Both the position numbers and the translations under genes were made by a program. A model generated the notes under the pieces. That model searched no databases. It was not told where the DNA came from and saw only the letters and a program-made list of their open reading frames with translations. From positions 352,001 to 416,000 of the forward strand of contig CAXXKT010000003.1 of NCBI GenBank assembly GCA_963662405.2: a stretch of 64,000 nt of DNA, read 5' to 3'. Origin of the DNA: Syntrophales bacterium. Lineage in GTDB: Bacteria > Desulfobacterota > Syntrophia > Syntrophales > UBA2210. The stretch's first letter is position 1. Each line of letters opens with the position of its first letter. Shown piece after piece: positions 9,338-33,498 of the stretch.

Positions 9338-9362
9338 AAAGACTTACTCCACAGGTGTTACA

Positions 9363-15320: not shown

Positions 15321-15352
15321 TGCTGTCTCCCGTGGAGCAATCTTCGGAACTC

Positions 15353-16756: not shown

Positions 16757-17950
16757 TCATTCTCTTCTCAGGTCAGCAAACCCTAATATGTTCACAATAC
16801 CCCCAATACAGGGGGGTATTCTTCCAGATTCCCAATCAGACTTCAGTTTTTCCACCATCCCTTGCACATAGGCATGCCAATCCATCTCCCTATTTTCAAC
16901 ACGGCCGTCAAAATCAATAATATTTTCAATCGTTCCGTTGTGCAGCAAATACAGTTCCGGGAAGGTGTTTGGATAATCATGGGAACAGATCACCTCCAGA
17001 AAAACTCGTCTATAATGCGGAGAGGCAAATCTCCAGGCAAGTCTTCCGGTCGGCAACATTCTCAGGCCGACTCTACTACACAATGATTTGAGTGTTCTTT
17101 TTTCTGCCATCAATAGATTTTTCCCTTGCGCGGTTTCATACCATCGATCGTTCTTGTCTTTATGTTGTTCCACCGTTTCAGTATCATGTAACAATTCATG
17201 TGACACGTCTTGCAGCTGATTTTCTTTCGATACACAGCATGATGAAGAACCCGCTGATTCACGCCTATCGCTATGAGTGCCACCACCGTCTAACGATGAT
17301 GGGGCACCAGCGTCAGTGAACTTGTTACACAATTCTCCAGCATTGGTCTTGTCAAATGTCTTGCAGTTGACATATGCCGTGTAAAATTGACTGACTTTCT
17401 CTTGTGTGCCTAAGTCGCAGGAAGCAATCTGGAAGTGAAAAGGATGGAACTGGAAAGTGTTATCCATATAGTAGGGATAGCAAGCAATGTTTTGTTCAGT
17501 AGGCCAGAAGAAGTATTCAACAAGGGCACGATGGAAAGGCAACTGCAGGTAATCGGTAGTGTGAGACAATACCCACACGGGGAATACCATTAAATCTCCG
17601 GTTTTATAGTCGGGATCTTTCAATATCTCCTCCACGCCTTTTCTATCTTCTTCGCTCGGTTCTGTAAGTGTCGGAGGATGTTTATGCCACTCACCGATGT
17701 AATCGACTCCGGTTTTTTCGGCAAAGTGATCAAGTGCCGCTTGAGAAAACTCCAGGTCTCTTTCAAACATGGCGGGCCTGTGGACCGCTTTCGGTCCGGG
17801 GGGAGTGGCGTGCGTAATCAACCGACCATTAGGCAACTTTGTTCCCAATAACAGGCCCCCTGTTTCCAATCTATGATCAACTTTCAGAAGTTCCTCCTCA
17901 ATGAACGAGAGGACGGAAGGGAAAATTATAATATTTGGTGGAGGTCTCAT
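16757..17950 (-). CDS. JAB/MPN+ isopeptidase fused to a degenerate E2-like domain
   Basis: ETGGLLLG and WHKHPPTLTEPSEED (E..HxHx7Sx2D intact); C-terminal WY..LL.EKR..GRLAW..DYPNTFP aligns with the neighbouring E2. Confidence 0.85.
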   Translation of the reverse strand: MRPPPNIIIFPSVLSFIEEELLKVDHRLETGGLLLGTKLPNGRLITHATPPGPKAVHRPAMFERDLEFSQAALDHFAEKTGVDYIGEWHKHPPTLTEPSEEDRKGVEEILKDPDYKTGDLMVFPVWVLSHTTDYLQLPFHRALVEYFFWPTEQNIACYPYYMDNTFQFHPFHFQIASCDLGTQEKVSQFYTAYVNCKTFDKTNAGELCNKFTDAGAPSSLDGGGTHSDRRESAGSSSCCVSKENQLQDVSHELLHDTETVEQHKDKNDRWYETAQGKNLLMAEKRTLKSLCSRVGLRMLPTGRLAWRFASPHYRRVFLEVICSHDYPNTFPELYLLHNGTIENIIDFDGRVENREMDWHAYVQGMVEKLKSDWESGRIPPCIGGIVNILGFADLRRE

Positions 17951-17979
17951 GTATCAGTCCCATCTGTTCGGAAAGATAG

Positions 17980-19533
17980 TCAAAGGGTTTCGAGCAGCCG
18001 AGTCGCTTCGCGATACCCTTGTTCAGATGCCTTGCGAAGCCACTGCTCTGCGGTGACTTCATCAGCTGGAACACCTATCCCCTTCAGATAACAGTATCCG
18101 AGGTTGCACTGAGCAACCGCATTTCCTTCCATCGCCGCTTTATTATACCATCGTACCGCCTCAGCCTTGTCTTCTTTGACTCCTTCTCCATAGTAGTAAC
18201 AATTTCCAAGTGCGTTCTGGGCATCGGAAACACCTTTTTCGGCTGCGATACGATACCACTGCAAGGCTTCTCTCATATCTTTAGGCCGCCCCTGACCATA
18301 GTCATAGCAAAGCCCCATACCATACTGGGACATACCATGACCTCGTTCAGCTGCAAGCTTCCATAAGTGACATGCTTCCACCCTATCCTCACCGACTCCA
18401 TCCCCAAGGAAATAGAGAAGCCCCATCCTGTACAAAGCATCAGGATCGCCATCTTGGGCACCCCGTCGCAACGTGTCTAAGGCATCAGGTATCCATTGTT
18501 GAACTTCAGCAAAGATTTTTTCCTTAGGCTTTGAAGCATTCCAATACATGTCAAACCGTTCAAATAGCATATTGAGCTTTGCCGTATGGTCTTCGTCTGT
18601 GTATGGAGTAGTTGATGGATCCTTTTGATAGAGAGCCCCAGATAGCTCTGTGACATCACAAAAACGATGAGATGGGTCAAATTCCAAACTTTTCCATAGA
18701 ATGGAGGCTAAGGGTTCTCCGACATCCCTTAATTTTGGTTTGACGCCCCTGTAGTGCTTTTCCAGTATATCCTGGAGCGTTCCCACATAGGGAGGATCCC
18801 CATCCAGCAATTCAAAAAGGATGCATCCAAGGGAATATATGTCAGCTGTGCATGCAACATCTTTGGGACGAGCGGCCATGATCGATTCGGGAGCAATATA
18901 ATGGGCTACCGCCGATTCATTCCACTTAGTGGATGAAATTTTTACTCCCATGTTCTCTAGCTCGCTGGAAAGGCCAAAATCGGCTATTTTCAAGACATCG
19001 TTCACGAATAGTATATTCTCCGGTTTCAAGTCCAGATGAACAAGCCCGGCATCGTGAATGGCACCAACTCCTCGACAGAGTTGTTGAAAATAATTCAGTG
19101 CTTTGGCTTTTCTTTTCTCCACACCTGGGTTTGCAATCATCCAGTTTCTCAGACTGCCTTCAGCAAGTTCCATGGGCATCATTACAAGAGATAAGCCCTT
19201 GTACATACAATGAACAGGCAGATAACCATTTAAAATGTGACTCCTGTCCTTAATCTTCTCCCGTATACGGAATTCCTGGGCCAAATATTTGATAATTGAA
19301 GGCGTGTGGTCGTCGTCAGGTAGTGCCACGATCTTTAACGCAAGATTCATAGCCATCTGATTATCATAGACACAGTAGACAGAACCGTGCCGGCCTTTTC
19401 CCAGAAATTCCTTTATTTCGAAACGTCCTTCCTGCAAGTGGTCTCCTTCAGACAGCAAAACCGATTGAGAAGCTGTCGTATCACCTTCGGGCGAAAATCC
19501 AGCGTGAAACGAATCGTTTGAATTGTTCAACAC
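17980..19533 (-). CDS. Hanks-type Ser/Thr protein kinase with Sel1-like repeats
   Basis: LGKGRHGSVY, ALK, HLDLKPEN, DFG, APE, DIYSLG; four A(Q)..LG..Y..G.G...D...A..W...AA..G repeats. Confidence 0.95.
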   Translation of the reverse strand: MLNNSNDSFHAGFSPEGDTTASQSVLLSEGDHLQEGRFEIKEFLGKGRHGSVYCVYDNQMAMNLALKIVALPDDDHTPSIIKYLAQEFRIREKIKDRSHILNGYLPVHCMYKGLSLVMMPMELAEGSLRNWMIANPGVEKRKAKALNYFQQLCRGVGAIHDAGLVHLDLKPENILFVNDVLKIADFGLSSELENMGVKISSTKWNESAVAHYIAPESIMAARPKDVACTADIYSLGCILFELLDGDPPYVGTLQDILEKHYRGVKPKLRDVGEPLASILWKSLEFDPSHRFCDVTELSGALYQKDPSTTPYTDEDHTAKLNMLFERFDMYWNASKPKEKIFAEVQQWIPDALDTLRRGAQDGDPDALYRMGLLYFLGDGVGEDRVEACHLWKLAAERGHGMSQYGMGLCYDYGQGRPKDMREALQWYRIAAEKGVSDAQNALGNCYYYGEGVKEDKAEAVRWYNKAAMEGNAVAQCNLGYCYLKGIGVPADEVTAEQWLRKASEQGYREATRLLETL

Positions 19534-19650
19534 ATCAGCCCTCCTTCAATGTCTGTAAACTGTTTTATGGGCCAGCCAGATCATATTTCACTGAACTTCC
19601 GAAACAACGGCTTATGGTACTGACTCTGTATCTTACACGAGTTGCTCAGT

Positions 19651-21531
19651 CTAACCCCCCGAACACGGTGCATATCTATCGAGTTCTTTCATTGTCTTAT
19701 GGATGCCGCTTACCCAGTTATCTATTGATCGTTGCCGGTTCAAATTCAGCAATCGGTACTCCCGTGCCAAAAAGGCATTAGTACGGATCACACTGTCAGA
19801 TGAATGACTCTTCTTGTTGGGATTGAATATGCAGTACCCGCTGACATGCCCGGTTTCTGCCATTATTTCGATTGCGTAATCCAGAAGAGGCGAGGGGGCA
19901 GGCAACCCTATCTGAGAAATATTGAGCCATCTGGTTTTTCGGATGCAGTGGCCATCGCAGAATGTTACATTCTCCTGTGACATACTCACAGATCTGCCTT
20001 TGGACGCAATCTTTTCAGCAATGCTTCTTTCCCAAAGCGCTAACGTTTTAAGCGACCGAATCCGCAATAGAGTCAGTTCTCTGACGGGGATTATTACCCG
20101 CCATTGAAATGGTCGTTCTAGAACTGCATCTTTTTCGATTTCCTGAACAACCAATTGTTCAGTAGAAAAATCAGACCTTATTGTATTACAGGGATCGATG
20201 CGACAGATCGAATGCACTCGAAGTTTTTCGATTACTTCCGAAAGGCCCTCTTGATAGGATGTTATTTTCTCATAATTTTCTATGGCTAACTCCGGTTCAT
20301 TCAACATTTCAAGCAGCTCAGCCAAGCGATAAAAAATCCCTGCGGTATCTTGTGATATACTGATTTTTTTCGTCAATTGGCGCAGAAATCCCAATTCGTG
20401 AAGTGATTTGCCCCGCAGTCGAGCACTTTCAGCCTGAAGGAGCTTGGCTTCGGGCCAGAATCCTTTTTTAACCAGTTCTTTGAGCATAGGCTTCATTTTA
20501 TCTGGATTCATCGCCTCTGCCTGTGCTTGTTCTATCAGCTTATTCTTGACCACTGTGACTTCATTCCGTTTCAACCTTTCAACAACCTTGGGCGGTAATG
20601 TAGTCAGAGATCGAAGACTTAGATTCCTTACGGCACCCATTTGCCGGAATTGAGGCAATGAGAAGATTCTAAGAGTTTGGTTTTTATCTGCACCAATGCA
20701 AAGAGCGGCGATTTTCTCCTTTCCCACTGGAGCAAGTCTCAAGATGGCAGAAGGTAATGCTTTTTCATGCACCAGACTTTTTTTTCTCAGATCCCATAGC
20801 TTCAGCTTCTTATCTTTCATGCCACCAGTTATTAAATGTTCTCCACAAGTGGCGACTGCATAAAAGACTCCGTCGTGACCCGTCAAAGTTTCATGCCGGC
20901 ATTCGTCTCGAAGGTTTATTAGGTGTAATCGTCCCTCCATTGAAGGAGCACATATATATCCGGCATCAGCATCAAAAGCCAGGACTGGGAAGAGATGTAG
21001 AGGGTCTCTTGGGAAGAGAAATCCTTCCATCTCAAATTGGCTAGCACGTGAATCAAGATCCCATATCTTAAGCTTTCCATCGATTCCCAGGCTCGTGACA
21101 ACTCTGTTGCCCAAAGCAACAATAGAGCAGATAGTGCCACGATGGGCATCCAGATCCCCTATTGGACGCTGTTCAGGGATTGAGATAAGACGGATTTTAC
21201 CATTGGCTCCAGCTGACAGAAGTATTTCGTCCGTAAGAAACGTTAAAGATGTTACAGGACAAAGCTGATGGTATATCTCAAAAAGAGGAGGGGTGTTTTC
21301 AGGAAGGCTTTGACTAGGGAAAAGCCAGAGACGAATCATCCCGACTTTCGAACCTGCTGCCAAATATCGTCCGCTTGGGGAAATCGAAAGGGCATAGACG
21401 CCTTTTGTTCTTTTATCACTGAACAGTATGTGACCCGTTTCATTTATACCGATGCTCCGCCAAATACGAAGTTCTCCATCAGCATCCGTTCCAGCTCCCG
21501 TTATCACGCTGTCATAATAAGGAATCATCAT
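19651..21531 (-). CDS. WD40-repeat protein with helical/TPR-like C-terminal half, ending in Gly-Gly
   Basis: Repeats ending LRIW, IRLW, LKIWD, LKLWD with AH/GH starts; C-terminus YAPCSGG-stop. Confidence 0.85.
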   Translation of the reverse strand: MMIPYYDSVITGAGTDADGELRIWRSIGINETGHILFSDKRTKGVYALSISPSGRYLAAGSKVGMIRLWLFPSQSLPENTPPLFEIYHQLCPVTSLTFLTDEILLSAGANGKIRLISIPEQRPIGDLDAHRGTICSIVALGNRVVTSLGIDGKLKIWDLDSRASQFEMEGFLFPRDPLHLFPVLAFDADAGYICAPSMEGRLHLINLRDECRHETLTGHDGVFYAVATCGEHLITGGMKDKKLKLWDLRKKSLVHEKALPSAILRLAPVGKEKIAALCIGADKNQTLRIFSLPQFRQMGAVRNLSLRSLTTLPPKVVERLKRNEVTVVKNKLIEQAQAEAMNPDKMKPMLKELVKKGFWPEAKLLQAESARLRGKSLHELGFLRQLTKKISISQDTAGIFYRLAELLEMLNEPELAIENYEKITSYQEGLSEVIEKLRVHSICRIDPCNTIRSDFSTEQLVVQEIEKDAVLERPFQWRVIIPVRELTLLRIRSLKTLALWERSIAEKIASKGRSVSMSQENVTFCDGHCIRKTRWLNISQIGLPAPSPLLDYAIEIMAETGHVSGYCIFNPNKKSHSSDSVIRTNAFLAREYRLLNLNRQRSIDNWVSGIHKTMKELDRYAPCSGG

Positions 21532-22454
21532 TCTTCTTCGAGTATTTCAGTATCAAATGATAATATGTGGGCCTCAGGGTCTACAGAAAGGCGGTAGCTC
21601 CCATCAAACCCAGCTTCTGTCAATAAGGACGCGTCGTATCGCTCATTTATTGTTCCGTCATCAGCACCTGTTCCATATGGTCCGTCATACAAATCAGAAG
21701 AGTCAGAATGTGTATTTCCCACAAGCAAATCTCCGCCGTGACTGTCGGCATTGATTTGTGCAGCCTTTTTCTCTCCCAAAGGAATTTTGCTCAACGTGAT
21801 GGTGAGGTCTGTTGAAACTGCATGGTTATCAGTGGCGGTAGCAAGATCGGAGGGTTGAAGATCCTCTGTGATCCTGTTATTCAGTCTTGGAACCCGGGCA
21901 TTTTCCAAACCGACCAAAAGGGATTTGATGTCAAACCTAGGGTCTCGGTCATAAGTCAAAGGCTGCAAGCTGGTATGAAAAGATGGTTTGAATGGTTGCT
22001 GCGAGGAGGGGGCATCACATTCTTCATCTCTTTGCAGAACCTTATGTATTTGCGTCAAAAGTTCGTTCAGGCGATTCATCTCCGATTCAGCGATCTCAGC
22101 AGCTCGGGTTATTTTTTCATCTGCATGGGGGGTGTTCAGATGGTGCGTATCTAATGCTTGGAGGTTTCTCTCCATGGCTTCCAAAGCCTGCTGTACTTTT
22201 TCTTCAATGGATTCCAGCTCTTTGCACAGGATCAAAATTCTTTCCTGTAAAATATAAATATGAGAATAATCTTCATTGCCTGTCCTGATACTATTCAAAA
22301 GTAATGTTAAGGTGTTGCGGCTGGATGAAATGTCCTGCATGAGGAACCACGCACGGTTCTCAACCTCGCGTAAATCAAAGCTGTTTGATTTGTTATGTTG
22401 GAGGGATTCAGTAGTCAGAGAAAAATTGGGGTCATCTTTTGTCAGATCATCCAC
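21528..22454 (-). CDS. Hypothetical protein, N-terminal coiled coil and acidic C-terminus
   Basis: 308-aa ORF, first gene of the cluster; stop overlaps the WD40 start. Confidence 0.7.
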   Translation of the reverse strand: MDDLTKDDPNFSLTTESLQHNKSNSFDLREVENRAWFLMQDISSSRNTLTLLLNSIRTGNEDYSHIYILQERILILCKELESIEEKVQQALEAMERNLQALDTHHLNTPHADEKITRAAEIAESEMNRLNELLTQIHKVLQRDEECDAPSSQQPFKPSFHTSLQPLTYDRDPRFDIKSLLVGLENARVPRLNNRITEDLQPSDLATATDNHAVSTDLTITLSKIPLGEKKAAQINADSHGGDLLVGNTHSDSSDLYDGPYGTGADDGTINERYDASLLTEAGFDGSYRLSVDPEAHILSFDTEILEEE

Positions 22455-22745
22455 AGGATTCTTCCTCTAAAATCCAAACTCGATATTAATTTGTATTAAT
22501 GGTTTTGGGATATTTTTCGATAATAAAACAATTGAGCAATGCACTCGCCTCATATGAAACTTCTTGACGCTTCCGGAAGTGCACCGTTCATTTCATTATA
22601 TAACTCTTGATTTAATTCTTAAATGAGAAATATGAGATATGTCAAGCTCAAATTGAGTATGTTGTTAATTTTTTAATGTTATATAGATGCCGCATGATTG
22701 GGTCTATACAGCTGCCCCGTTCCGTTGATGCTTATTCTATATACA

Positions 22746-23159
22746 TCACAGATAGTTGAAGAGGTCTCTATCTTTCCGCTCTTGAAGACCGTCTTTTCTT
22801 TCCCTGAAATCCTGCATAAGTGATGAAAGACGATTCAGTGAGCGAGAGAATCTGTTTGAAAAGACCCATCCCTCCCGGTAACCATAAAGCTTATTGAATC
22901 GGGAGACGTGGTCGATGATGCCCATCCTCCTCATTTTGCTCCGGACAGTTTCCAGCATACGGGGTGAAAATCCGTACCTATCGCATAAGGGGCTCAGTTC
23001 CGCCAAGAACTCACTGGGGGCGTATTTAAGCTCGATAAATATTGCCAGGAAGATCTTCTGGTGATTTTTATTATTGGGGAACAACAGTGCTGCAATCTCA
23101 TCCAAGCCCTGAGTGCGGGCAATTTTATTGTAGGTAACCTCGATCTTTGTGTTTGACAT
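22746..23159 (-). CDS. Hypothetical protein, possibly winged-helix
   Basis: 137-aa ORF with a GGGGTG RBS; helix-turn-helix-like LCDRYGFSPRMLETVRSKMRRMGII. Confidence 0.65.
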   Translation of the reverse strand: MSNTKIEVTYNKIARTQGLDEIAALLFPNNKNHQKIFLAIFIELKYAPSEFLAELSPLCDRYGFSPRMLETVRSKMRRMGIIDHVSRFNKLYGYREGWVFSNRFSRSLNRLSSLMQDFRERKDGLQERKDRDLFNYL

Positions 23160-23406
23160 TTTTCACCCCAGCCTTTTTGATCAAAATATGGCCTTCGAGA
23201 GGGTATAGGCTCTTCTTCACTCTGTTAAAATCTTTTCTCACTTTGATCCCTGTAAACCAGATAAACTGCTGCTTACCGAAAACCCTGCGATTCCATGGCA
23301 GTCCTGCTCAAAAGGGCAGGGGGACCAGTGAATCGTTCCTCTTCCTATGCCTTTCTATAGGACTTACGCAGTCTCGATACCCAAGATTTTAGGAGGGTAA
23401 TTCCCT

Positions 23407-23799
23407 TTACAATTCAGGACCTGTGGGATTGGTGGCTTTGTCGTTGCTTTCTCGACGACAAAAGGACAAATCGCCTATTTTTTGCTGTTTTTTACGCATC
23501 TCAACCCGTTCCCTGACAATTGCCAGTGCCTGCTGTCGGAGTTGGGTCCCGAACTGACTTTCGATCAGGTAGATCGCCTCATAGGCCGAAACGTATATGT
23601 CATTGAACAGCCGCTGGAACCGCCAGCGGACTCCCTGCCTGGTCATTTTGAAGGAGGTCTCTATCTTATCGCCATAGTTCTGTCTCAATACGAGGCGCTT
23701 ATATCCGGCATCTTTCATATCGACAGCCAGGTCTTTTGCATCGAGCAACAACTTTAATCGTTCCAGGTAATCCTTATCCTTCTGCGTAAGCTTCATCAT
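23407..23799 (-). CDS. Hypothetical protein, HTH-like
   Basis: GGAG RBS; overlaps the upstream gene end; FKMTRQGVRWRFQRL. Confidence 0.65.
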   Translation of the reverse strand: MMKLTQKDKDYLERLKLLLDAKDLAVDMKDAGYKRLVLRQNYGDKIETSFKMTRQGVRWRFQRLFNDIYVSAYEAIYLIESQFGTQLRQQALAIVRERVEMRKKQQKIGDLSFCRRESNDKATNPTGPEL

Positions 23800-24637
23800 T
23801 ACATCTCCGTATGAGTAAATCATCGCCGGATTGTTGCAGGACAACCTCGCGATCGTTATCCATGAAGATCAGAGCCGTGAACCGCCGTGCCCTGTCGCAT
23901 CGGCAGTCCTCGATAAGGGGCGATATGGAGGAGAAAAGAAGGGTGTGGTGACCCAGTACCGCCAGAATATGAGACCGGTAGGCATTGAGATCGAAGTCAC
24001 TCTTCAGATCGAAGAAATCCGTATATGCCGCCATAGGATTTTCGAGGATGAACGCATCCAGGTCTTTGGAGAAATCGGAGAGGATATCCGACTCCGGATT
24101 TTCCATGAGAACCAGTTCCCCGGATCGGGACTCGGCCAGCAGTCTTCTGATGGCTTCTCGTTTCTCTCTGGACCGGTTCCGCGACTCCTGCATCATCTGC
24201 CGGAAATACTCGGCATCAAACAAACGTTCATCGAATATGAATCGCGAGGGGACCGTCTTATGACATGTTGAACAGGAGTAATGAAACGTTTTTCGAACGA
24301 GCGGCGCCTGGCAGCAGGGGCTTGTCTGAAAGGCGACCGTCGGATCGAACACGTGTCCTCCCTGACAGGTGCATTCACTCTGTCCGCTCATGGTGATTCC
24401 CCTGCCGCAGGTTGGACAGGCGTAGTTGGAAAGCATTACCTGAAAATAAAACTCCTTTGCACGTTCTTTATAGGACTCTATATGTTGAAGAATGCCATTG
24501 ATTCTGCGGACAAGAGGGTTTTTGAAGAAGGCATCCTGAGTTGCGGTTCCTTCCGGCACTATGCGTTCGAAAGGTACTTCGCATGTGAGTAACGGGATGC
24601 TTCTTTTTCCAACCGGTATGTCTTCTTCGTTTTCCAT
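23774..24637 (-). CDS. Zinc-ribbon protein with ScpA/kleisin-like C-terminal winged helix
   Basis: CPTC, CTCQGGH, PCC, CSTC; C-terminal RARRFTALIFM...VVLQQ.GDDLLI resembles the ScpA C-terminus. Confidence 0.55.
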   Translation of the reverse strand: MENEEDIPVGKRSIPLLTCEVPFERIVPEGTATQDAFFKNPLVRRINGILQHIESYKERAKEFYFQVMLSNYACPTCGRGITMSGQSECTCQGGHVFDPTVAFQTSPCCQAPLVRKTFHYSCSTCHKTVPSRFIFDERLFDAEYFRQMMQESRNRSREKREAIRRLLAESRSGELVLMENPESDILSDFSKDLDAFILENPMAAYTDFFDLKSDFDLNAYRSHILAVLGHHTLLFSSISPLIEDCRCDRARRFTALIFMDNDREVVLQQSGDDLLIRRCNDEAYAEG

Positions 24638-24650
24638 GGTGAGCTGTGCA

Positions 24651-25892
24651 TCAGGTAGCTGGATTCAGGTCAAACTCCATCAGAATGACCTGTGTGAGCC
24701 TGTCCGAGATCTCCTTCGGCAGGTTGATCGTGATTTCCTTGGTTCGCCCATATCGGCCATGGGAAAAGACCCGCGCCTGGATGAAGCCGTACATGTCCAA
24801 CTCCGAAACGAGATCGCTGAAGGCTCTTTGGGTCAAGACCCGCAGCTTGATCGTGGAGCAAAACTGACGGTATCCTTCATAGGCGTCACCGGTGTAGACC
24901 GGTTTCGTCGTCCTTGCCGTAAGGAGAATAACGGCAAAAAGGGCGGCCTGGAGCTGCTTGGGGCTGGATTTTATCATCGCCACGTACTTGTCCTTCTCGA
25001 TGTCATCCAGTGCCCGATCGACCAGATCCATGGTAATTTTTGTCCCTTCCTTTTCCGCCATGAGTGCCGACTTTGAAAGAAGCTCCACCGCCTTTCGTGC
25101 ATCGCCATGGGTCCTGCTCGACACGGCAGCGATTTTTTCCAGAACGCCCGCTTCGATCATTTCTTGATTGAGGGCCTTCTGTATGCGCAGCGCAAGGATT
25201 TGTTGTAGATCGTAGGCATTGTAGGGTTTGAAGAATATCTCGTTGATCTTCAGAAAAGACTTGATCCGCGGATCGATGTTCTCCTGCCAGTTAAGTCTGT
25301 TTGAGGTAAATACCAGAATGAGCTTCAACGGCACGGTTTGAGGCAGTCTCTTGGTCAGGAACTTCAGAAAACTGTCGATATCCCTTCTCACATGATCGAC
25401 TTCATCGACAAAGATGATGAAATATCCACGATAGTTTTTCATCTTCTCTTCGATCTTGCCCATGAGTTCGTCCAATGAGATCCCCTTCTTGTAGCGCTTT
25501 GACGCATCCAGGTAGCAGGCGAGATCGTTTAACACCCGAAAGCAGGGTTTTGGTGTCGATAGATCCAGATGTATATACATCATTTCGATCATCTTCTTGT
25601 GGCAGATCGCCTTCAGCATGTTCAGGTAATAGAGCATCGTCACCGTTTTACCGGTGCCCGTTTTTCCATAGAGTGACAGATGGACAGGATGGTCCCCTCT
25701 GAACATGGGTGCGAAATGGGAACTCAGGTCTTCGATTTCGGTGTCTCGAACATCCAGGGCAAAGATCTCCTCCAGCACCTGGAATTGTTCGCTCCGGTCG
25801 AGCTGCTCATCGTCAAGATATCGTCTATCCAGGATGATGGTATTCTTGAGCAGGGACTGAATCTGCTTTTCAATCTTCAAATCGGCTCGCAT
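24651..25892 (-). CDS. cdc6: Archaeal-type Orc1/Cdc6 replication initiator (AAA+ plus winged helix)
   Basis: YGKTGTGKT, IFVDEVD, TSN, DPRIKS, FKPYNA..L..IL..R, HGDARKA, WH domain SELDMYGFI...GRYGRT. Confidence 0.92.
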   Translation of the reverse strand: MRADLKIEKQIQSLLKNTIILDRRYLDDEQLDRSEQFQVLEEIFALDVRDTEIEDLSSHFAPMFRGDHPVHLSLYGKTGTGKTVTMLYYLNMLKAICHKKMIEMMYIHLDLSTPKPCFRVLNDLACYLDASKRYKKGISLDELMGKIEEKMKNYRGYFIIFVDEVDHVRRDIDSFLKFLTKRLPQTVPLKLILVFTSNRLNWQENIDPRIKSFLKINEIFFKPYNAYDLQQILALRIQKALNQEMIEAGVLEKIAAVSSRTHGDARKAVELLSKSALMAEKEGTKITMDLVDRALDDIEKDKYVAMIKSSPKQLQAALFAVILLTARTTKPVYTGDAYEGYRQFCSTIKLRVLTQRAFSDLVSELDMYGFIQARVFSHGRYGRTKEITINLPKEISDRLTQVILMEFDLNPAT

Positions 25893-25896
25893 GGTG

Positions 25897-26126
25897 GTTC
25901 CACTGGAAATTTACCGGGACATGCGACAGCTTCTGAATAACCACATATTTATATTTTTCGTTTTTTCAGTGTGAGTAATTTTCCAGTGGAGATTGGGGAG
26001 GAAAGATGTGTTGTCCTTTTTTGAAATTCATCGCAATATTTTCTATATAGAAAGTAAATATACATAAAGATATAGATATATACCGATACATACATACCGT
26101 GTTCCATCGGAAATTTACTCTCACTG
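25897..26126. promoter_or_regulatory. Putative archaeal-style replication origin: three ORB-like boxes and an AT-rich unwinding region
   Basis: GTTCCACTGGAAATTTAC (25897-25914), CAGTGTGAGTAATTTTCCAGTGGA (25967-25990) and its inverted partner GTTCCATCGGAAATTTACTCTCACTG (26101-26126) around an AT-rich spacer. Confidence 0.7.
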
Positions 26127-26209
26127 GGGATGGGACAAAAGTTCAATGAGAGCATGAGAATTCAAACTACTGAAACCATCTGAAAATAGAAAGATTAATA
26201 AACGAAGTA

Positions 26210-26482
26210 TTGTATGGAATGAGGATGGAAGATTTTTACAATATAATTCCCTTTCCGTATCGAACAGAACGAATTGGGAGGATCAGGGATGTCATAACTC
26301 AAATCAGAGCCGATTCTGAACGCTATATGGCGATCAAACAAAAGATTGAAGCGGGTTTCGGCGATGATGCAGATATGGAAGAACTACAGCAGACAAGAGC
26401 ATGGTTACAAAAGGAAAAGTTTACTTACAAACGAATGAATTCTAAGGGTATCGAAGGGATCGCATGTACATTTCATTTATAA
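26210..26482 (+). CDS. Hypothetical protein
   Basis: 90-aa ORF, no motif recognised. Confidence 0.4.
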   Translation: MYGMRMEDFYNIIPFPYRTERIGRIRDVITQIRADSERYMAIKQKIEAGFGDDADMEELQQTRAWLQKEKFTYKRMNSKGIEGIACTFHL

Positions 26483-26628
26483 TACTGATGTGCATTAGAT
26501 TTCCGTATTATATAGGAAACTGTCTATTTAATGTTCTGCTCTGATCTGATGTCTTTTTTGTTCCTCTTGCCTTCAGTATGTCGGTCTGGTATACTTCTGT
26601 AAGAACGACGTTCTTACGGAGGTGTAAC

Positions 26629-26835
26629 ATGATTAAACATCTACAGAAGGTCGGGAACAGCAGGGGCATCGTGTTGGACCGGCCCATCTTGAAGCTTCTG
26701 TCTGTACCGCCAGACGGCGCTTTCGAGGTAACGCCTCAGGAGGGCGGACTGTTTCTCAGGCCGATCACAACACAAGAAGCCTACGAGAGGGTATCCAAAA
26801 AGCACCAGAAATCGCTGGACAAGCTTTCCCGATGA
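26629..26835 (+). CDS. AbrB/MazE-like antitoxin
   Basis: LQKVGNSRGIVLDRPIL; GGAGGT RBS; overlaps the toxin start. Confidence 0.85.
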   Translation: MIKHLQKVGNSRGIVLDRPILKLLSVPPDGAFEVTPQEGGLFLRPITTQEAYERVSKKHQKSLDKLSR

Positions 26836-27233
26836 CAGAAGAGCCCTATTTCATCACCCTTGAAGAGGCCATTCTCTTCCACCGCGAGGAGATAGAACGG
26901 ACCGGGGGAGCCGAGGGCATCCGTGATCTGGATGGATTGACCGCAGCACTCGCTGCCCCACAAGCGTCCTTTGGTGGTTCCTATCTATTGGTGGATCTGT
27001 TCGAGATGGCGGCTGCTTACGTGGAGTCGATCTGTATGCGACATCCATTCGTCGACGGCAACAAGAGAACCGGAACGGCCTGTGCTCTTGTCTTCCTGCT
27101 GCTGAATGGCTACGAGATCGACGAAGAACACGATGAGGCGCTTGCCGACCGCGTTCTCGATTTGGTGACACATAGGACGGACAGAGAGGGACTTGCCGAG
27201 TATTTCCGGACGAGATCAAGAGAGGCCGGGTGA
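26832..27233 (+). CDS. doc: Doc-type Fic-domain toxin
   Basis: GG..GIRD and HPFVDGNKRT Doc motif. Confidence 0.9.
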   Translation: MTEEPYFITLEEAILFHREEIERTGGAEGIRDLDGLTAALAAPQASFGGSYLLVDLFEMAAAYVESICMRHPFVDGNKRTGTACALVFLLLNGYEIDEEHDEALADRVLDLVTHRTDREGLAEYFRTRSREAG

Positions 27234-27368
27234 GGTAAAACAATAGCTTGTACTGGACGGAGTTCCGCGGATCGCTCCACTGCGCATAGTCCTTGATAAT
27301 GTATTATTGCGCTGTCAAGTACCCAAAATTTTTGATATACGAAATAGCATCGTTCACAGGAGAACCGA

Positions 27369-27800
27369 ATGAGTAACCAAGAAGAGAAAGAGGACGCAGA
27401 GATCTCTGGATATTCACAGCGTATATTAGGACACGAGGCATTCGCTGAATTGTACCCGACCATTGAAGAGATTCAAGTCATCGTCAAACGGAGCGGCAAC
27501 GGCAAACCCACCCACGCAGACACACAAGCATATTATGATCGCTACGGAAAAGATGTTGTGGACTATGTCGATTGCGCAAACCCGATGTGCCGCAACGGTG
27601 GTTTCTCTATTGGCAGTCTCATTGAGAAAATGGTTGTTTCCAATCAGACAAATTTGCAGAAAGACTATATTCCTTGCCCGGGATATGAAGATTCCAGCCC
27701 ACGAGTTGGCCGAACTCACCAGTGTACCAACTTCTTCGGGATCAGGATCAACATCAAATACAAATCACAATCTTCCAGTGAAGATAGCGAATTCGCATGA
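27369..27800 (+). CDS. Hypothetical Cys-containing protein
   Basis: AGGAG RBS; CANPMC, CPGYE, CTNF possible zinc site. Confidence 0.6.
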   Translation: MSNQEEKEDAEISGYSQRILGHEAFAELYPTIEEIQVIVKRSGNGKPTHADTQAYYDRYGKDVVDYVDCANPMCRNGGFSIGSLIEKMVVSNQTNLQKDYIPCPGYEDSSPRVGRTHQCTNFFGIRINIKYKSQSSSEDSEFA

Positions 27801-27869
27801 GCCACCCCATTATCAGAATAAGAATATTATACATATAATAATTATTTTCTTGAAGGAGGAATCCCTGCC

Positions 27870-28154
27870 ATAGCCCTAACAAAAGGAGACATCGTCAAGT
27901 CAATCCAAGATCAGTTAAACTTACCAAAGGACAAATCTACAGGCTTACTTGAATCCGTTCTGGAGAGTATAACCCAATCGCTTGCCGATGGTGAGGATGT
28001 TGCGATCAGCGGATTTGGGAAGTTCTGTGTCATTGACAAGAAAGCACGATCCGGGCGAAATCCTCAGACAGGCGAACCGATGGTTATCGGGCCACGAAGA
28101 GTTGTCACATTCAGGAACTCTTCACGATTAAAAGAGAAGCTCAACTCGAAATAG
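27870..28154 (+). CDS. ihfA: IHF alpha/HU-family DNA-bending protein with ATA at the start-codon position (absent from the ORF track)
   Basis: AAGGAGGA RBS, then ATA-ALTKGDIV...GEDVAISGFGKF...RSGRNPQTGE...RRVVTFR; 94 codons without a stop. Confidence 0.85.
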   Translation: MALTKGDIVKSIQDQLNLPKDKSTGLLESVLESITQSLADGEDVAISGFGKFCVIDKKARSGRNPQTGEPMVIGPRRVVTFRNSSRLKEKLNSK

Positions 28155-28443
28155 AAAGAATAATGGTGTGAAAAATTCTTGATATAAGCTCAGAGAGCTA
28201 GAAGGCTGACATCTTTGATCTTGATGCCTTTTCTGCTTTTGACTGGCCGTAGCCGGAGGGTTTATAGCCTGATCATCAAAGCCCTGTTTCTTATCAAAAG
28301 AAGTGGGGTCAATAGCAGATCTCCAGCTCGTTCAATCCGTAGATTTTGGTCGATTTCCTTCACCACCCCCCATCATAAAACCGAAAACTTTATATACCAG
28401 TATCACTTCCCAGTAACAAAAAGGGACAGATGAGCTGGTTTGC

Positions 28444-28980
28444 ATGATCATAAACTCGATAACCCCGGACTACGATAACGGAAATTTCCCCGTCGAAGTC
28501 AGCTCTGCGTCCCCCTCTATAACGTATCTTTATCCCCAGAGGTATGGCTATCATCGAACCTGCCCCGCATATCCCATTACCTTCCCCTTTGAGCGAAAAC
28601 CGATGTTCTACGCGACTGGCTTGGGTCTCGAGGGACTCCTCTACCAGAAACAGGAGGTCATCGATTCCAAGATCCGCATGGTCCTTTCGGAGATCGACCA
28701 GCGCCGGCTCATGAAGGACTATCATCTCTATCGAATCGATTGCGATCAATGCTCCTGCCGGAACTTGGTGTACTTTATCGGCATGGACTACAAGGACCGC
28801 CGCAGGGTGGATATCGAAAAGAAGATCATCGATCTGGAACAGGAAAAACGACGTGAACGCGCCGCCTACTTTCGGGATGTCCTCTTCCTCAGAAAGGAGC
28901 TGAGGGAATCGTTCATCGAGAAGCTGGAAGAGGAACAGAAGGCGGAGATATTTATGAACCCCAAGGAGGAATTCCCATGA
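28444..28980 (+). CDS. Hypothetical coiled-coil protein
   Basis: 178-aa ORF heading a translationally coupled run. Confidence 0.65.
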   Translation: MIINSITPDYDNGNFPVEVSSASPSITYLYPQRYGYHRTCPAYPITFPFERKPMFYATGLGLEGLLYQKQEVIDSKIRMVLSEIDQRRLMKDYHLYRIDCDQCSCRNLVYFIGMDYKDRRRVDIEKKIIDLEQEKRRERAAYFRDVLFLRKELRESFIEKLEEEQKAEIFMNPKEEFP

Positions 28981-29129
28981 ACGAGATAACCAAGGAAGAC
29001 ATTCGAAAGCTGAGAAACGACCCGTTGAGCTTTGCCGTGCTTATGGAAAACCAGCATTTAGAGCACGTCATCGCCACCTTCGTGTCGGTTCTGAACAAGA
29101 GAAGACGAACGCGAGGTGATCAGAATTGA
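28977..29129 (+). CDS. Small hypothetical protein (50 aa, below the ORF-track cutoff)
   Basis: AAGGAGG RBS, ATGA overlap with the upstream stop, overlaps the downstream start. Confidence 0.55.
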   Translation: MNEITKEDIRKLRNDPLSFAVLMENQHLEHVIATFVSVLNKRRRTRGDQN

Positions 29130-29871
29130 ACGACGCATCCTGAGCCCCACCGCAATCAACACCTACCTGGCATGTCCCCGCAAGTTTTACCTGCGCTACA
29201 TCAAAAAGCTGCCCGGCAGGCCCTCCATTCATCTTATACGAGGTTCTCTCGTCCATAAAACCCTCCATGACTTTCATGTCAACCTCTCCAGAATTATTCC
29301 ATACAACGATCCCGAAGCGATCGGCACCGCCCTGATCGGCATATTCCAGCGCCACTGGCAGGCGGAAAAGACGGCCCTCGAATCCCTGGGACTCTCTCAG
29401 GAGCGCCTGGAATACTACCGGCGCGACAGTGCGGACATGCTGACCAATTACGCCCGATGGTTCGCCGGCCAGAGGGCCCCTCCCGTGGTGGATGCCACGG
29501 AACTCAAGATATTTTCCGGAAAGCTTCGCCTCATGGGAGTCATCGATGCCGTGAAGATCCAGGGAGGCGAAACCTTTCTCACCGATTACAAGACATCGAA
29601 GAGCACTTCGATCACCGAGGATATCACGCGGCAGGCCATCATCTATGCACTGCTCTACCAGGACCGGTACGGAGACATCCCCGCGGCGGTCTATATCCAT
29701 TTCCTCAGGGATCCCAAAGATCCGGCGGTGCTCTACATGGACGATGTCCAGCTCGAGTACGGAAAAATATTAATAGACGCCATCCGCAACAAGACCGGGA
29801 CCACCGATGAAAAGGACTACCCCTGCACCTGCGGTGGCACCTGCGATAGAGACTTCATCACCGGTCCATGA
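29116..29871 (+). CDS. PD-(D/E)xK nuclease of RecB/AddB/Cas4-like type
   Basis: LSPTAINTYLACPRKFY, GSLVH, GVID, DYKT, Q...YAL, C-terminal CTCGGTC. Confidence 0.88.
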   Translation: MIRIERRILSPTAINTYLACPRKFYLRYIKKLPGRPSIHLIRGSLVHKTLHDFHVNLSRIIPYNDPEAIGTALIGIFQRHWQAEKTALESLGLSQERLEYYRRDSADMLTNYARWFAGQRAPPVVDATELKIFSGKLRLMGVIDAVKIQGGETFLTDYKTSKSTSITEDITRQAIIYALLYQDRYGDIPAAVYIHFLRDPKDPAVLYMDDVQLEYGKILIDAIRNKTGTTDEKDYPCTCGGTCDRDFITGP

Positions 29872-31811
29872 CGATGATCGATCACGTGGAAGAAAAACTG
29901 AGGCTGCTGAAACCGATCCTCCCCCGGAAACAGTGGGAGTATCTCAGGATCAGCCATGCCCTGGAAAAGAACCAAAGGAAGCGCTTCGAGATAGAGAGCC
30001 TCATGGACTCCCTGATCGCCAAACATGTGCCGGGCCTCCGGATGGACGAGATCCTCCTGCCGCCGCCTGATGAGAATCTGCTTTCCGGCGACTGCCCCAT
30101 CGGCCGGACCGTCTATCCCAACAGTTCAGATTCCGTCTTCGGCATCCGGGACGGGGAGTGGATCAAACACTGCGGCATCTTCGGCAAGACCGGAAGCGGG
30201 AAGACCACACTCATGGTGCGGATACTGAAAGACCTCTGCGACAAGGACAGGCCCTTTCTGATCTTCGATTACAAACGCAACTACCGGGACCTCCTGAAGC
30301 ATCCCGATTTCGAGAAGAGCGACATCATGATCTTCACCGTGGGCCGGAAAGACGTGGTTCCCTTCCAGTTCAATCCCAAGGCGGGTCCCGAGGGCGTGGA
30401 AGGATATGTCTGGATCAAGCAGCTCGCCCAGATCATCGAGAAGGTGTATCTGCTGGGGCCCGGCGCCAACGACGTCTTCATGGAAAGCGCCGGTCTCGAT
30501 ACCTTCAAGGAGATGCAGGACAAGGTCCTGAAGCAGCGGAAAAAGGCGCGAGAGCTCCTCTGGTGGGCCAGCGTCAAGAGGACCCTGAACGCCATCAATT
30601 ATCCGGGACTGGGCGAAGTGGTCAACTGCCGGCAGGGATACCCCATCCCGGAGCTTTTGACAAAGAAGGTCATCTTGGAACTGGACGGCCTTTCCGATTC
30701 CGATCAGGCCTTCATCATCGGCAGCCTGCTCCTCTGGATCTACCACTACCGTATGCGGCAGCCCGAACGGGAGACGCTGAAGCACTTCATCATCATCGAA
30801 GAGGCCCACCACCTGTTTTTACAGACCAGGAAGGAAGAAGACATTGCAGATATCATCATGAGGGAGATCCGCGAGCTGGGCGAGGCGATCATCGTCATCG
30901 ACCAGCACCCCAGCAAGATGTCCGTGAGCGCCCTGGGGAACCTTTCCACCAAATTCGCCCTGACCCTGTCCCTCAACCAGGATGTGGCATCCCTGGCCAA
31001 TGCCATGCTCCTGGGAAAGGACGAACGGCGGTATCTCGCCATGCTGACCCTGGGGCAGTGCATCTGCCGTTCCGATCGTTTCCCCTGGCCGATCCTGCTT
31101 GCCATCGACAACTATCCCCTTCAAAAGGGCGCGGTCACCGATGAAGACCTGAAGACGCGCATGGCCGGGTATTTGGAGCATTTGACCCCGGAAAACCCTT
31201 CAATGAGCCCACAAAGGGATATTCACGGTATTCAGAGCCAGGAAACACTCTCCCCCCTGGGGCGGATCGTACTGGAAAACATCGAGCTCAAACCCTTCAT
31301 CGGCTTTGTCAGGCGCTTCAGAGACTTGGGGCTCACCATCCCCGATGGCTACAAGGTAATTGAAGAATTGACCGCCATGGGGCTGATCGTTCCCCTGACC
31401 ATCGACGGCCAGCGGCTCTACGAACTGAGCCGGAAGGGAAGAGACGCCCTGGGAAAAAAGGTTTTCCACAAGGGCCGGGGCGGTCTCGAACACCGCTACT
31501 ATATCGAAAAGATCAAGGACCATTACCTGAAGGAAGGAGGATTCACCTTCCTGGAAAAGGACGATATCGACATCGTCATCGAAAAGGTCGATCGCACCCT
31601 CGCCATCCAGATGGAGACCGGGAAATCCGACATCCAGGCGAACCTCTTGAAACTCGGCCGGTACCGAGCGGACTTCAAATACAGCCTCGCCACCAACCGG
31701 GAGACAGAGGTACTCATCCGGGACATCCTGAAACAGAACTTCCTGCCCGACCGGGAACGGATCCAGGTCGCCTTTGTCAAAGAGTTCCTCCGATCCCCTC
31801 CCAAACTGTAA
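29868..31811 (+). CDS. HerA/VirD4-like (DUF87) ATPase with C-terminal wHTH/nuclease-like region
   Basis: HCGIFGKTGSGKT, FIIIEEAHH, REIRELGEAIIVIDQHP. Confidence 0.85.
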   Translation: MTMIDHVEEKLRLLKPILPRKQWEYLRISHALEKNQRKRFEIESLMDSLIAKHVPGLRMDEILLPPPDENLLSGDCPIGRTVYPNSSDSVFGIRDGEWIKHCGIFGKTGSGKTTLMVRILKDLCDKDRPFLIFDYKRNYRDLLKHPDFEKSDIMIFTVGRKDVVPFQFNPKAGPEGVEGYVWIKQLAQIIEKVYLLGPGANDVFMESAGLDTFKEMQDKVLKQRKKARELLWWASVKRTLNAINYPGLGEVVNCRQGYPIPELLTKKVILELDGLSDSDQAFIIGSLLLWIYHYRMRQPERETLKHFIIIEEAHHLFLQTRKEEDIADIIMREIRELGEAIIVIDQHPSKMSVSALGNLSTKFALTLSLNQDVASLANAMLLGKDERRYLAMLTLGQCICRSDRFPWPILLAIDNYPLQKGAVTDEDLKTRMAGYLEHLTPENPSMSPQRDIHGIQSQETLSPLGRIVLENIELKPFIGFVRRFRDLGLTIPDGYKVIEELTAMGLIVPLTIDGQRLYELSRKGRDALGKKVFHKGRGGLEHRYYIEKIKDHYLKEGGFTFLEKDDIDIVIEKVDRTLAIQMETGKSDIQANLLKLGRYRADFKYSLATNRETEVLIRDILKQNFLPDRERIQVAFVKEFLRSPPKL

Positions 31812-31968
31812 CCCTCCAGTCACTTCATCATTTCACCTCCTCATGCTCACCGAAAGAATGCACCGGCTGCGGATGACTATTGCAGCGGCAGGCGCACCGT
31901 GCATTTCACTTAAAAACCCATCAGGCAGATAACAGACCACAGCGATATGGAATTGCCGTCCGGAATAC

Positions 31969-31995
31969 CCGTCTCCTTCGGGAGGCGGTTTTTTT
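31969..31995 (+). terminator. Intrinsic terminator
   Basis: CCGTCTCC-TTCG-GGAGGCGG plus T7. Confidence 0.8.
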
Positions 31996-32031
31996 GTAGC
32001 GAAAGCGCTCTTTCTCACGGAGCGGTTCGAT

Positions 32032-32382
32032 ATGTCGCAGTTTCGAAAACGTCAACACAGAAAGGAGGTGACAGAAGTGGCATTCGATTTTTTCGAAAAG
32101 GAGGTGGAACGATTACAGAAGAGATTCAACTATGTCTTCGGGGAACGAACGGTATTCGACATTCGGACCCGACAGCTGTGCATCCTGGCGATCTGCCGGG
32201 CAGGACTGTTGTCCCGACAGATCAGCACCAGCAGCGATGCGAAGGAAACCAAAAAGATGACCCGGGAGTTTCGCCGTATCCGGGAAGGCCTTCATCGGTG
32301 TTTCGATCGCATGGCCAAGGAGCCGGAGATGGAAACACATGCCCCGCATGCGGATGCCGAACGCGTCATTGCCGGCGCCTGA
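32032..32382 (+). CDS. Hypothetical protein (start may be GTG near 32077)
   Basis: ORF with a strong internal AGGAGGTG RBS. Confidence 0.55.
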   Translation: MSQFRKRQHRKEVTEVAFDFFEKEVERLQKRFNYVFGERTVFDIRTRQLCILAICRAGLLSRQISTSSDAKETKKMTREFRRIREGLHRCFDRMAKEPEMETHAPHADAERVIAGA

Positions 32383-32515
32383 TCGGGGAATTCGAGACAC
32401 GCCGGAACTGTGTACCTGATCAACAGAAACACCCGAAGAAGAAGTGACAAAAAAACATACCAATACCCACATGAGCCTCCCGGTGAGGCTCATGTGCATT
32501 ACAGGAGGTGAAAAC

Positions 32516-33112
32516 ATGCAAGAAGCAGCACATCAACAGAACGAAAGAAGGGAGTTGCGAAAGAGCGGAGTGGATACGGTGCCGGTGGTGAGAAACTTCC
32601 GGCAGGTCATCGGGTCCCGGGACATGTCCCTGATGAAGAAGGAGCTCTACCAGTTCCTGCATCTCCACTGCGGCTTTATCGCCCATTACAACATCCACGG
32701 GTTTCAGGAGACCTACGCCGCGCCAACAGACTTCGCCGATATCTTTATCCGGCACTTCGATGAAGACCATCGGTACTTCTGCGGCAACTACGCCTGCCAT
32801 GAGGAACCCTATCGAGAGAGCGGTTACACGAAGGCGGAGATCAAAGAGGCGTTCTTCCGGATCGTGGCGAGCCATAAGGACGCCATCGAACGATGGGCCC
32901 GTGATGAGGAACGGAACCATCGCTTCGCCGCCTTCCAGGTGCTCAGGAAGGAGTTCGAGCATGAGGAGAAGAGCATTCACATAGTCTGCGAGCTCTGCGG
33001 CGAGGAGATGGACCTTCGGATCGAAGGGTGGGACCACAGCAAGGGCGTGCCGGACAACCTGTGCTGTCTCTTCTGCGGGCATCCCATTGAAACAGAGGGT
33101 GAAAGGAGGTGA
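32516..33112 (+). CDS. Hypothetical protein with C-terminal zinc ribbon
   Basis: AGGAGGTG RBS; LYQFLHLHCGFIAHYNIHGF; CELC...CLFC. Confidence 0.7.
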   Translation: MQEAAHQQNERRELRKSGVDTVPVVRNFRQVIGSRDMSLMKKELYQFLHLHCGFIAHYNIHGFQETYAAPTDFADIFIRHFDEDHRYFCGNYACHEEPYRESGYTKAEIKEAFFRIVASHKDAIERWARDEERNHRFAAFQVLRKEFEHEEKSIHIVCELCGEEMDLRIEGWDHSKGVPDNLCCLFCGHPIETEGERR

Positions 33113-33498
33113 TACACATGTGGAACATACCGTCACAGGACAGATTGGACAAGATTCCGAGACTCTATGAAACGGAACCGGTCGCCCTTCAGGACAAGAT
33201 GATCCACCTGCATTTTTTCATCGGCGGCTGCGACTGGTACGTCGCCGAATATGACGGAGAGGATCTCTTCTGGGGATTCGCCTGCCTGAACGGCGACCTT
33301 CAGAATGCAGAGTGGGGATACGTCTCTTTCAGGGAACTGCAAGAGATACAGGTCCAGGGCTGGCTTGAAATCGATTGTGAAACGGAGGATTCCTGGAGGA
33401 TCCGTTCCGCCTCGGAAATCGAACTGATCCGCCAAGCCCACGGGTGGCCTCTGCACAAGGACACACGACAATTCGACAATACCATCCGCCCCGCTTGA
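33109..33498 (+). CDS. DUF2958-like protein
   Basis: HFF..G.DWYVAEYD....FWG......AEWGYVSFREL. Confidence 0.75.
   Translation: MIHMWNIPSQDRLDKIPRLYETEPVALQDKMIHLHFFIGGCDWYVAEYDGEDLFWGFACLNGDLQNAEWGYVSFRELQEIQVQGWLEIDCETEDSWRIRSASEIELIRQAHGWPLHKDTRQFDNTIRPA

Follow-up and report, generated by a model that had tools for sequence, protein, structure and literature searches.

An archaeal-type initiator gene with origin-like boxes and archaeal-type promoter motifs on an integrated element of a Syntrophales bacterium

Bacterial replication is held to be initiated by DnaA or Rep proteins, and bacterial transcription by sigma factors. What, then, is an orc1/cdc6 gene of archaeal type, preceded by boxes that resemble archaeal origin recognition boxes (ORBs), doing in a bacterial chromosome? 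The question is raised by a 64,000-nucleotide stretch of a Syntrophales bacterium (assembly GCA_963662405.2, contig CAXXKT010000003.1, positions 352,001 to 416,000), hereafter the window, in which an initial annotation had proposed an ORB-DUE-ORB origin (DUE, DNA-unwinding element) and a bacterial replicon initiating by the archaeal mechanism. Our analyses point to an archaeal set of initiator, symmetric origin and BRE-TATA promoters (BRE, TFB recognition element) that is maintained by selection on elements known to date from bacteria alone; these elements either also live in archaea or have re-wired their archaeal parts. The cassette comprises the following features, in window positions:

24651..25892, minus strand: orc1/cdc6 initiator gene, 413 amino acids, with AAA+, lid and winged-helix regions (family and Pfam matches)
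25897..25914, minus strand: box 3, ORB-like, putative autoregulatory operator, 4 nt before the ATG and after the inferred transcription start
25921..25923, minus strand: C/AT, inferred initiator, with +1 at 25922
25946..25953, minus strand: TATA-like box, at -31 to -24 from the inferred +1
25956..25960, minus strand: BRE-like CGAAA, at -38 to -34, present in 22 of 26 loci
25967..25990, plus strand: gene-proximal ORB-like box; a conserved extension adjoins its end farther from the DUE
25991..26102, no strand: AT-rich spacer, putative DUE, 112 nt, 71% A+T
26040..26053, no strand: perfect 14-bp palindrome, midway, 57 and 56 nt from the two boxes
26103..26126, minus strand: gene-distal ORB-like box, inverted to the proximal one

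The 413-residue open reading frame (ORF) scores 260.7 bits against the TIGR02928 cut-off of 181.3 and matches the Pfam families AAA_22, Cdc6_lid and Cdc6_C. Its best match in PDB is 2qby_A, Cdc6 homolog 1 (E 2e-55), followed by 2qby_B (E 7e-36). It keeps G76-T83, D163/E164, N198, R209 and R266, which we take to be Walker A and B, sensor 1, the arginine finger and sensor 2. The DNA-contact residues R341, R365 and G120 of Sulfolobus Orc1-1 (PMC3089459; here and below, publications are cited for the available part of their text) correspond to R356, R380 and G137, and its contact residue L121 to I138, in the alignment with 2qby_A (offset 11). These four positions, among them the helix-turn-helix and wing arginines and the glycine of the initiator-specific motif, are invariant in 27 of 27 sequences, and no part of the protein is better kept than the winged helix. 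Membership of the Orc1-1 subfamily was not found, the initiator falling below all four PRK00411 cut-offs.

Homologs are 69–100% identical among the 120 matches listed; a scan of 185,579 species genomes gave seven loci and metagenomes gave 51 further ones. In a clade at 42% identity, which retains the origin layout, single genomes hold several copies (G603, contigs C291 and C24; G372, four contigs), and G603 has two near-identical ones. Some copies are damaged, with stops in locus L009 and in two of the four G372 copies and a split ORF in L045/L046. A quick tree of 78 proteins groups the query with every labelled bacterial sequence in one 22-row clade (SH-aLRT 99), which has a long stem and arises among archaeal-type proteins; the clade lies outside a 37-row group holding named Acidilobus and Hecatella proteins, and a Micrarchaeota cluster falls in an open basal grade. 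The backbone of this tree is open, the donor is left open, and its long branches P0211 and L062 meet. L062 (G206:C272) is a divergent orc1/cdc6 of 33% identity with an IscB-like neighbour; its contig, only 2.5 kb long and assigned to a genome of the same family, may be mis-binned.

The two boxes of the inverted pair (25967-25990 and 26103-26126) are alike at 20 of 24 nt, and the spacer that they enclose measures 91–145 nt with 61–87% A+T across 25 loci. Comparisons were based on 28 non-redundant upstream regions, leaving out L033 for the promoter matrix (n=27), L033 and L008 for promoter counts (n=26) and L033, L042 and L055 for the palindrome (n=25). The central palindrome is present, with at most two mismatches, in 24 of these 25 loci and is a single site in the genome at one mismatch or fewer. 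The 11-nt core of the boxes is not rare by itself, with nine matches in the window (at most one mismatch) versus 7.6 expected and 17 exact sites in the 3.8-Mb genome; three exact core sites within 250 nt, however, have a Poisson chance of ~1e-10. The full three-box layout occurs in 42 of the 46 loci with enough upstream DNA (window counted) and in none of ~3000 control stretches. The exceptions are L008, with a spacer deletion and box 3 lost, and L033, L042 and L055, where the pair is lost. Judged by eye, the layout persists in six loci of the 42%-identical clade. Since it was kept while the synonymous sites of cdc6 became saturated relative to the query (pS 0.74–0.92, dN 0.07–0.26, 9/9 pairs), the boxes and promoter motifs are under selection. 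Haloarchaeal ORBs have a G-string at their end (PMC4010727); no G-run was found beside the boxes here, where a different conserved extension is present instead. A perfect DnaA box occurs in one of 25 origins and an IHF site likewise in one of 25, neither being enriched. Group II intron reverse transcriptases lie near the origin in three loci (L038:6790-8115, L042:7006-9825 and L041:3-1493), among which L042 lacks the box pair.

The full-length archaeal-type protein, the three boxes with the third on the minus strand 4 nt from the ATG, and the ORB-DUE-ORB geometry, all put forward in the initial annotation, are thereby borne out, and the layout recurs beside homologs. The comparison with archaeal Orc1/Cdc6 that it proposed places the protein among archaeal-type sequences, in a clade of its own.

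Between the proximal box and box 3 (25960-25921) lies a set of motifs resembling a BRE, a TATA box and an initiator. WWTAWA is found at -33 to -22 in 23 of 26 loci, versus a host baseline before ATGs of 1.9%, and C/AT, whose place is ~22 nt past the TATA-like box, occurs in 26 of 26 (counts anchored on box 3 only). Sigma-70 boxes are not apparent at the cdc6 promoter, where a -10 hexamer (TAnnnT) occurs in 1/26 loci (control 2/26) and a TTGACA-like -35 in 0/26. Archaeal core promoters have TATA ~23 nt and BRE ~33 nt upstream of the start (PMC4247193), and the haloarchaeal BRE is CGAAA (PMC4983044); the motifs upstream of cdc6 fit such a promoter in the spacing of their predicted BRE and TATA relative to the inferred +1. 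Autoregulation of cdc6 through box 3 is plausible, because this box occupies the stretch from 8 nt past the inferred +1 to 4 nt short of the ATG; in 14 of 26 loci its GGA end is at the same time a Shine-Dalgarno (SD)-like site.

A promoter matrix trained on the 27 cdc6 sites extends these motifs to other genes of the integrated element described below. The five highest scores in the genome fall within the element (27.1–16.7, one being the training site), the best elsewhere being 16.4, and the element contains nine matches versus 1.9 in local shuffles. Among the element's gene families, it marks F18 in 5/5 other loci, F5 in 7/10, F7 in 5/11 and parA in 2/5; F4, F8, F10, F11, F16 and F19 are not marked. 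Eight of 29 non-redundant matches outside cdc6 have an ATG at +38 to +41, that is, at the inferred +1, while off-peak windows hold at most three and host matches give 1/85; SD-like sites accompany two of these eight leaderless-type sites, and -10-like hexamers also two. By eye, ORB-like half sites are also visible just 3' of BRE-TATA-like motifs at 28398-28420 and 9950-10008 of the window, and Orc1 may control further genes.

The window corresponds to G000:C3:352001-416000 of a 3.80-Mb, three-contig genome listed as 100% complete, with 49 tRNAs and one cdc6 only. Its dnaA lies at C1:992,507, by the skew minimum near 996 kb, a dnaB gene is present, and its NusB is 85–86% identical to proteins named Syntrophales or Syntrophobacterales. 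On contig C3, which measures 564 kb and carries tRNAs and core bacterial genes, three features delimit the surroundings of the cassette:

G000:C3:323968-437091, no strand: integrated element, ~113 kb, containing the whole window (1..64000)
C3:434609-435631: archaeo-eukaryotic primase (AEP) gene inside the element
C3:436035-436946: tyrosine integrase gene, just inside the right tRNA-Glu repeat

A 45-bp repeat of the tRNA-Glu 3' half is found at C3:323,968 and C3:437,047 (44/45 identical), and beyond the right copy (attR) lie the core genes fab, nrdR, rib and nusB, common to 7/7 congeners. The repeats, the integrase and the shared core genes therefore place the cassette inside a ~113-kb integrated element. 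cdc6 is an accessory gene, as seen from its sparse occurrence (0/7 congeners, 2/301 class genomes and 4/401 phylum genomes, own genome counted). A second bounded element, in Desulfovermiculus (G302), lies on a 576-kb contig between copies ~98 kb apart of a perfect 44-bp tRNA-Pro repeat, with an integrase at one end and cdc6 inside, and a further relative is carried on a 4.07-Mb Syntrophales contig. Neither an attL/attR-joined circle nor a bridging contig was found among the public contigs compared with attR. In those contigs the element side is deeper (7.27 versus 4.8–4.9 and 5.53 versus 2.0–2.7), a difference from one sample, in which depth is not copy number, and which we did not use. GC skew across the element has no clean switch at the origin. 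The element has a Replic_Relax match and DUF87 ATPases, and TraG/TrwB matches in relatives stay below cut-off; no complete mating channel was identified among the element genes. A phage search gave no match, IMG/VR gave none for either the protein or the box pattern, and in PLSDB only distant archaeal Cdc6 matched.

The proteins with which an archaeal initiator and promoter work were not found. For MCM, this host and element gave only weak AAA cross-matches (at most 29.5 bits), and five other carriers gave none (0/5; one of the five is listed as at least 90% complete and clean). TBP and TFB were detected in none of six carriers (this 100%-complete genome and five others), and controls were positive in 4/4 archaea. 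Family scans of the two bounded elements, which took in ORFs lying whole within a stretch and, in one scan, 74 of 90 listed ORFs, revealed no shared replicative helicase, leaving no candidates but the DUF87 ATPases and the AEP primase. With no MCM found, archaeal initiation inside this bacterium would have no helicase to load. The idea of a bacterial replicon initiating by the archaeal mechanism, with which this study began, thus finds no support here in that form: the cassette is an integrated passenger of a chromosome with a DnaA origin.

The module resembles Sulfolobus oriC1/Orc1-1 (ORB3-DUE-ucm-ORB2) in having an initiator gene beside three boxes, two of which are inverted around an AT-rich spacer with a motif in its middle. 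In Sulfolobus, an essential 11-bp ucm lies midway between the inverted ORB2 and ORB3 (PMC12141716), which recruit two MCM hexamers (PMC12141716, PMC6742236). The module differs from oriC1 in its bacterial integrated setting, its own box extension without a G-run and the lack of any MCM found, and its mid-spacer motif, unlike ucm, is a perfect palindrome, so that the likeness is positional. It is predicted to work like an archaeal oriC1 but without Orc1-1 subfamily membership or known partners in the carriers searched. Thaumarchaeal integrated elements such as NitGar-E3, NitVie-E3 and NitAQ6f-E1 encode Cdc6/Orc1, presumed to recruit the host replisome, and AEP primases are common in that mobilome (PMC6563490). 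Like the thaumarchaeal integrative and conjugative or cryptic integrated elements, ours is integrative and encodes Orc1/Cdc6, whereas their hosts are archaea that supply MCM and TBP/TFB, and the hosts here are Desulfobacterota and a Planctomycetota bin. As in archaeal core promoters, CGAAA is followed by a TATA-like box ~23 nt before a pyrimidine/purine step, with the ATG at the inferred +1 in four families; unlike in archaea, no TBP/TFB accompanies them in the six carriers, and the starts are inferred. Among bacterial replication proteins, Cch is an AAA+ helicase carried by an integrative element, and iteron Rep proteins repress their own synthesis, have no AAA+ domain and rely on iterons that stand as direct repeats at one flank of an AT-rich region. 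The module shares with the pPS10 RepA type of iteron Rep a winged-helix initiator adjoining its sites (bioRxiv 2024.09.03.610885), while Cch, from a Staphylococcus aureus mobile island (PMC6563490), is a helicase, and the protein described here is predicted to be an initiator that binds origin sites of ORB type. Archaea are known to have integrative elements that encode Cdc6/Orc1 (PMC6563490, PMC3914693, PMC4010727, PMC5333045). A bacterial Orc1-ORB element was not found in full-text searches of the open literature; nor was one found in the available parts of bioRxiv 2024.09.03.610885, bioRxiv 2026.05.20.726742, PMC9600348 and PMC11529989, and that of PMC7203096 does not mention Cdc6. The mid-spacer palindrome and the archaeal-type promoter before cdc6 and several backbone genes are new here.

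The explanation that we favour, tentatively and with somewhat less than even confidence, is that the cassette serves a family of ~100-kb tRNA-targeting integrative elements as their module for replication and self-control. It would descend from an archaeal Orc1/origin pair, be put to use in an archaeal co-host and be carried in integrated form by the bacterium. In the archaeal co-host the element would exist as a free circle with the module in use. One Orc1 monomer would bind each inverted box, in opposite polarity, and on the excised circle the bound Orc1 would load two helicase rings onto the AT-rich spacer, the central palindrome serving as a spacer or activator site in the manner of ucm. 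Orc1 on box 3 would repress its own transcript from the BRE-TATA-initiator promoter. In the bacterium, the element would stay integrated and be copied from the DnaA origin. An archaeal co-host is most economical because helicase loading and cdc6 transcription need MCM and TBP/TFB, which were not found in the carriers searched, and it would explain together the origin symmetry, the mid-spacer motif, the BRE-TATA motifs and the leaderless geometry. Three features with known partners in archaea have indeed been kept together: the opposed ORBs, the motif in the middle of the DUE and the BRE/TATA/initiator spacing. Syntrophales live beside methanogens. Further, and more doubtfully, the elements may be inter-domain shuttles that integrate at tRNA genes of syntrophic and sulfate-reducing bacteria, use TBP/TFB and Orc1-MCM in partner archaea and move cargo between the two domains.

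Several observations weigh against an archaeal co-host. No archaeal carrier was found among the loci from the 185,579 species genomes or among named records, a blank that is only moderately strong because carriers are rare (7/185,579) and free circles probably bin poorly. The seven loci of that scan all come from bacterial metagenome-assembled genomes (five deltaproteobacterial or Desulfobacterota, one Balneolales and one Planctomycetota), the organism names among close homologs are all bacterial (3, 4 and 2 in separate listings), and the nearest plasmid Cdc6 proteins listed are at most ~30% identical. The long stem of the clade implies an old split from known archaeal proteins. In the lid, 10 of 33 outgroup-conserved positions are changed, yet the AAA core changed at least as much. 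The transcription start at 25922 is inferred only, and the eight leaderless-type sites come from only four gene families and are thus not independent. Bacterial parts also occur in the backbone (an IHF-like gene, SSB, the lytic transglycosylase of L045 and bacterial tRNA targets), and in the top atlas clusters of the backbone proteins F3 and F6 every member with a phylum (77 and 45) is bacterial. Further backbone proteins have distant matches with only bacteria in the tallies listed, or none, which is not decisive.

The bacterial host record and backbone parts would suit a cassette re-wired within bacteria alone, a close rival that we hold somewhat less likely. Orc1 would then act like an iteron Rep protein, opening the spacer and handing it to host DnaB or to the element's ATPase and AEP primase, and the BRE-TATA motifs would be read by an unknown element or host factor directing bacterial RNA polymerase. 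Every named carrier and the backbone parts just listed are bacterial, host DnaB is present, parA/parB imply an extrachromosomal phase, the Desulfovermiculus element and L040 also have the AEP primase, a family that in L007 and L039 adjoins cdc6, 14 of 26 cdc6 genes have the SD-like site, and a link between the WH1 domain of plasmid Rep proteins and Orc1/Cdc6 has been proposed (bioRxiv 2024.09.03.610885). On the other hand, a DnaA box and an IHF site appear in one origin of 25 each, sigma-70 boxes are missing at the cdc6 promoter, and the candidate readers F3 and F4 have no match in the G302 and G303 stretches examined, which keep the motifs. Such re-wiring needs two unknown mechanisms, and nothing in it explains why a bacterial reader would keep the exact archaeal spacing and the leaderless geometry.

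That the cassette is not an origin at all, Orc1 being a regulator or a partition or transfer scaffold and the boxes its operators, we consider unlikely. The inverted pair, the 91–145-nt AT-rich spacer and the central palindrome have the geometry of an origin, and Walker A/B, sensor 1, the arginine finger and sensor 2 are kept, even if the leader and box 3 overlap, the winged helix is better kept than the rest of the protein, half sites seem present by eye near the F18 promoter and Orc1-2 is a regulator in Sulfolobus (PMC9738581). It is quite improbable that elements evolved in archaea left stranded bacterial copies with an idle module: the damaged copies (L009, two of four in G372, the split ORF of L045/L046, L008, L033, L042 and L055) speak for such relics, but att sites and integrase are intact, with bacterial cargo, in two unrelated hosts, G603 has two near-identical copies, and no archaeal source population was found. 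Finally, a mis-assembled or mis-binned archaeal fragment is very unlikely and the location truly bacterial. Most loci do lie on short metagenome contigs (that of L006 measures 3.6 kb and belongs to a Balneolales bin) and no public contig bridges the att site, but the 564-kb contig has tRNAs and, beyond attR, core genes shared with 7/7 congeners, direct repeats mark both ends of the element, as they do in the 576-kb Desulfovermiculus contig, and a member sits on the 4.07-Mb Syntrophales contig; the linkage to bacterial flanks supposed at the outset is therefore upheld.

If shuttling between domains is true, it offers a concrete path by which genes pass between archaea and bacteria, and a natural vector that crosses domains. 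If re-wiring within bacteria is true, Orc1 fires an origin without MCM, and archaeal-type promoters are read without TBP/TFB. The unit of ~1.5 kb is open to direct test.

The shared backbone of the elements comprises F3, F4 and F6 downstream of cdc6, the F18/PD-(D/E)XK/DUF87 ATPase genes, ArdC-N, parA/parB, F5, F10 and the AEP primase. In the window, the following features accompany the cassette:

5408..8202, plus strand: BRE-TATA-like motif (score 19.5), then parA, parB and a Replic_Relax relaxase-like gene
22746..23159, minus strand: F6, probable winged-helix protein, 12 loci
23407..23796, minus strand: F4, small helical protein overlapping the F3 stop, 19 loci
23774..24637, minus strand: F3, two Cys clusters and a C-terminal kleisin (ScpA)-like winged helix, downstream of cdc6, 23 loci
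26225..26482, plus strand: F7, small divergent gene; in relatives the ATG lies 38–39 nt from the start of the BRE-TATA-like motif
27870..28148, plus strand: IHF/HU-like gene, 58% to its homolog in L041, family named by eye
28380..28397, plus strand: second BRE-TATA-like motif (score 22.9), heading the F18/PD-(D/E)XK/DUF87 operon
28444..31811, plus strand: operon of F18, PD-(D/E)XK nuclease and DUF87 (HerA/TraG-like) ATPase

The fold of F3 matches 4i99_C and 5h66_C weakly (E 0.016), with atlas leads at 0.76–0.78, and F3 might engage host SMC. F6 has bacterial atlas clusters and a distant AF_0843 lead at 0.91. Profiles of F3 and F6 gave nothing significant against PDB sequences, and F4 has no fold match (best Z 5.7). 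A small gene and a Doc/Fic toxin form a pair adjoining the origin (26629-27233). In L045 (10054-15865), an operon of uncharacterised genes together with the lytic transglycosylase lies near cdc6 and is a possible bacterial mating apparatus.

The cargo includes, at 46848-62068 of the window, a gas-vesicle cluster (gvpL/F, N, G, K), a CDC48 ATPase, an archaeal-type Hsp20 and an ArsA-like ATPase, with a 511-nt near-exact duplication at ~53601-54752. A second groEL (962-2907) has its chromosomal counterpart at C1:1.466 Mb, with ~72% DNA identity between the two. A ubiquitin-like conflict cluster at 11388-21531 encodes ThiF (E1-like), JAB, a Zn-ribbon protein, a Ser/Thr kinase-Sel1 fusion, WD40 and a HerA-like ATPase. 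Outside the window, L065:10429-13961 (C3 426-430 kb) encodes the MBL protein of the anti-phage 6A-MBL system (406.8 versus a cut-off of 220), adjoining an E2/JAB fusion, and at the left end of the element (L063:12435-15360) a TOTE primase-helicase gene is apparently split by an IS200 transposase.

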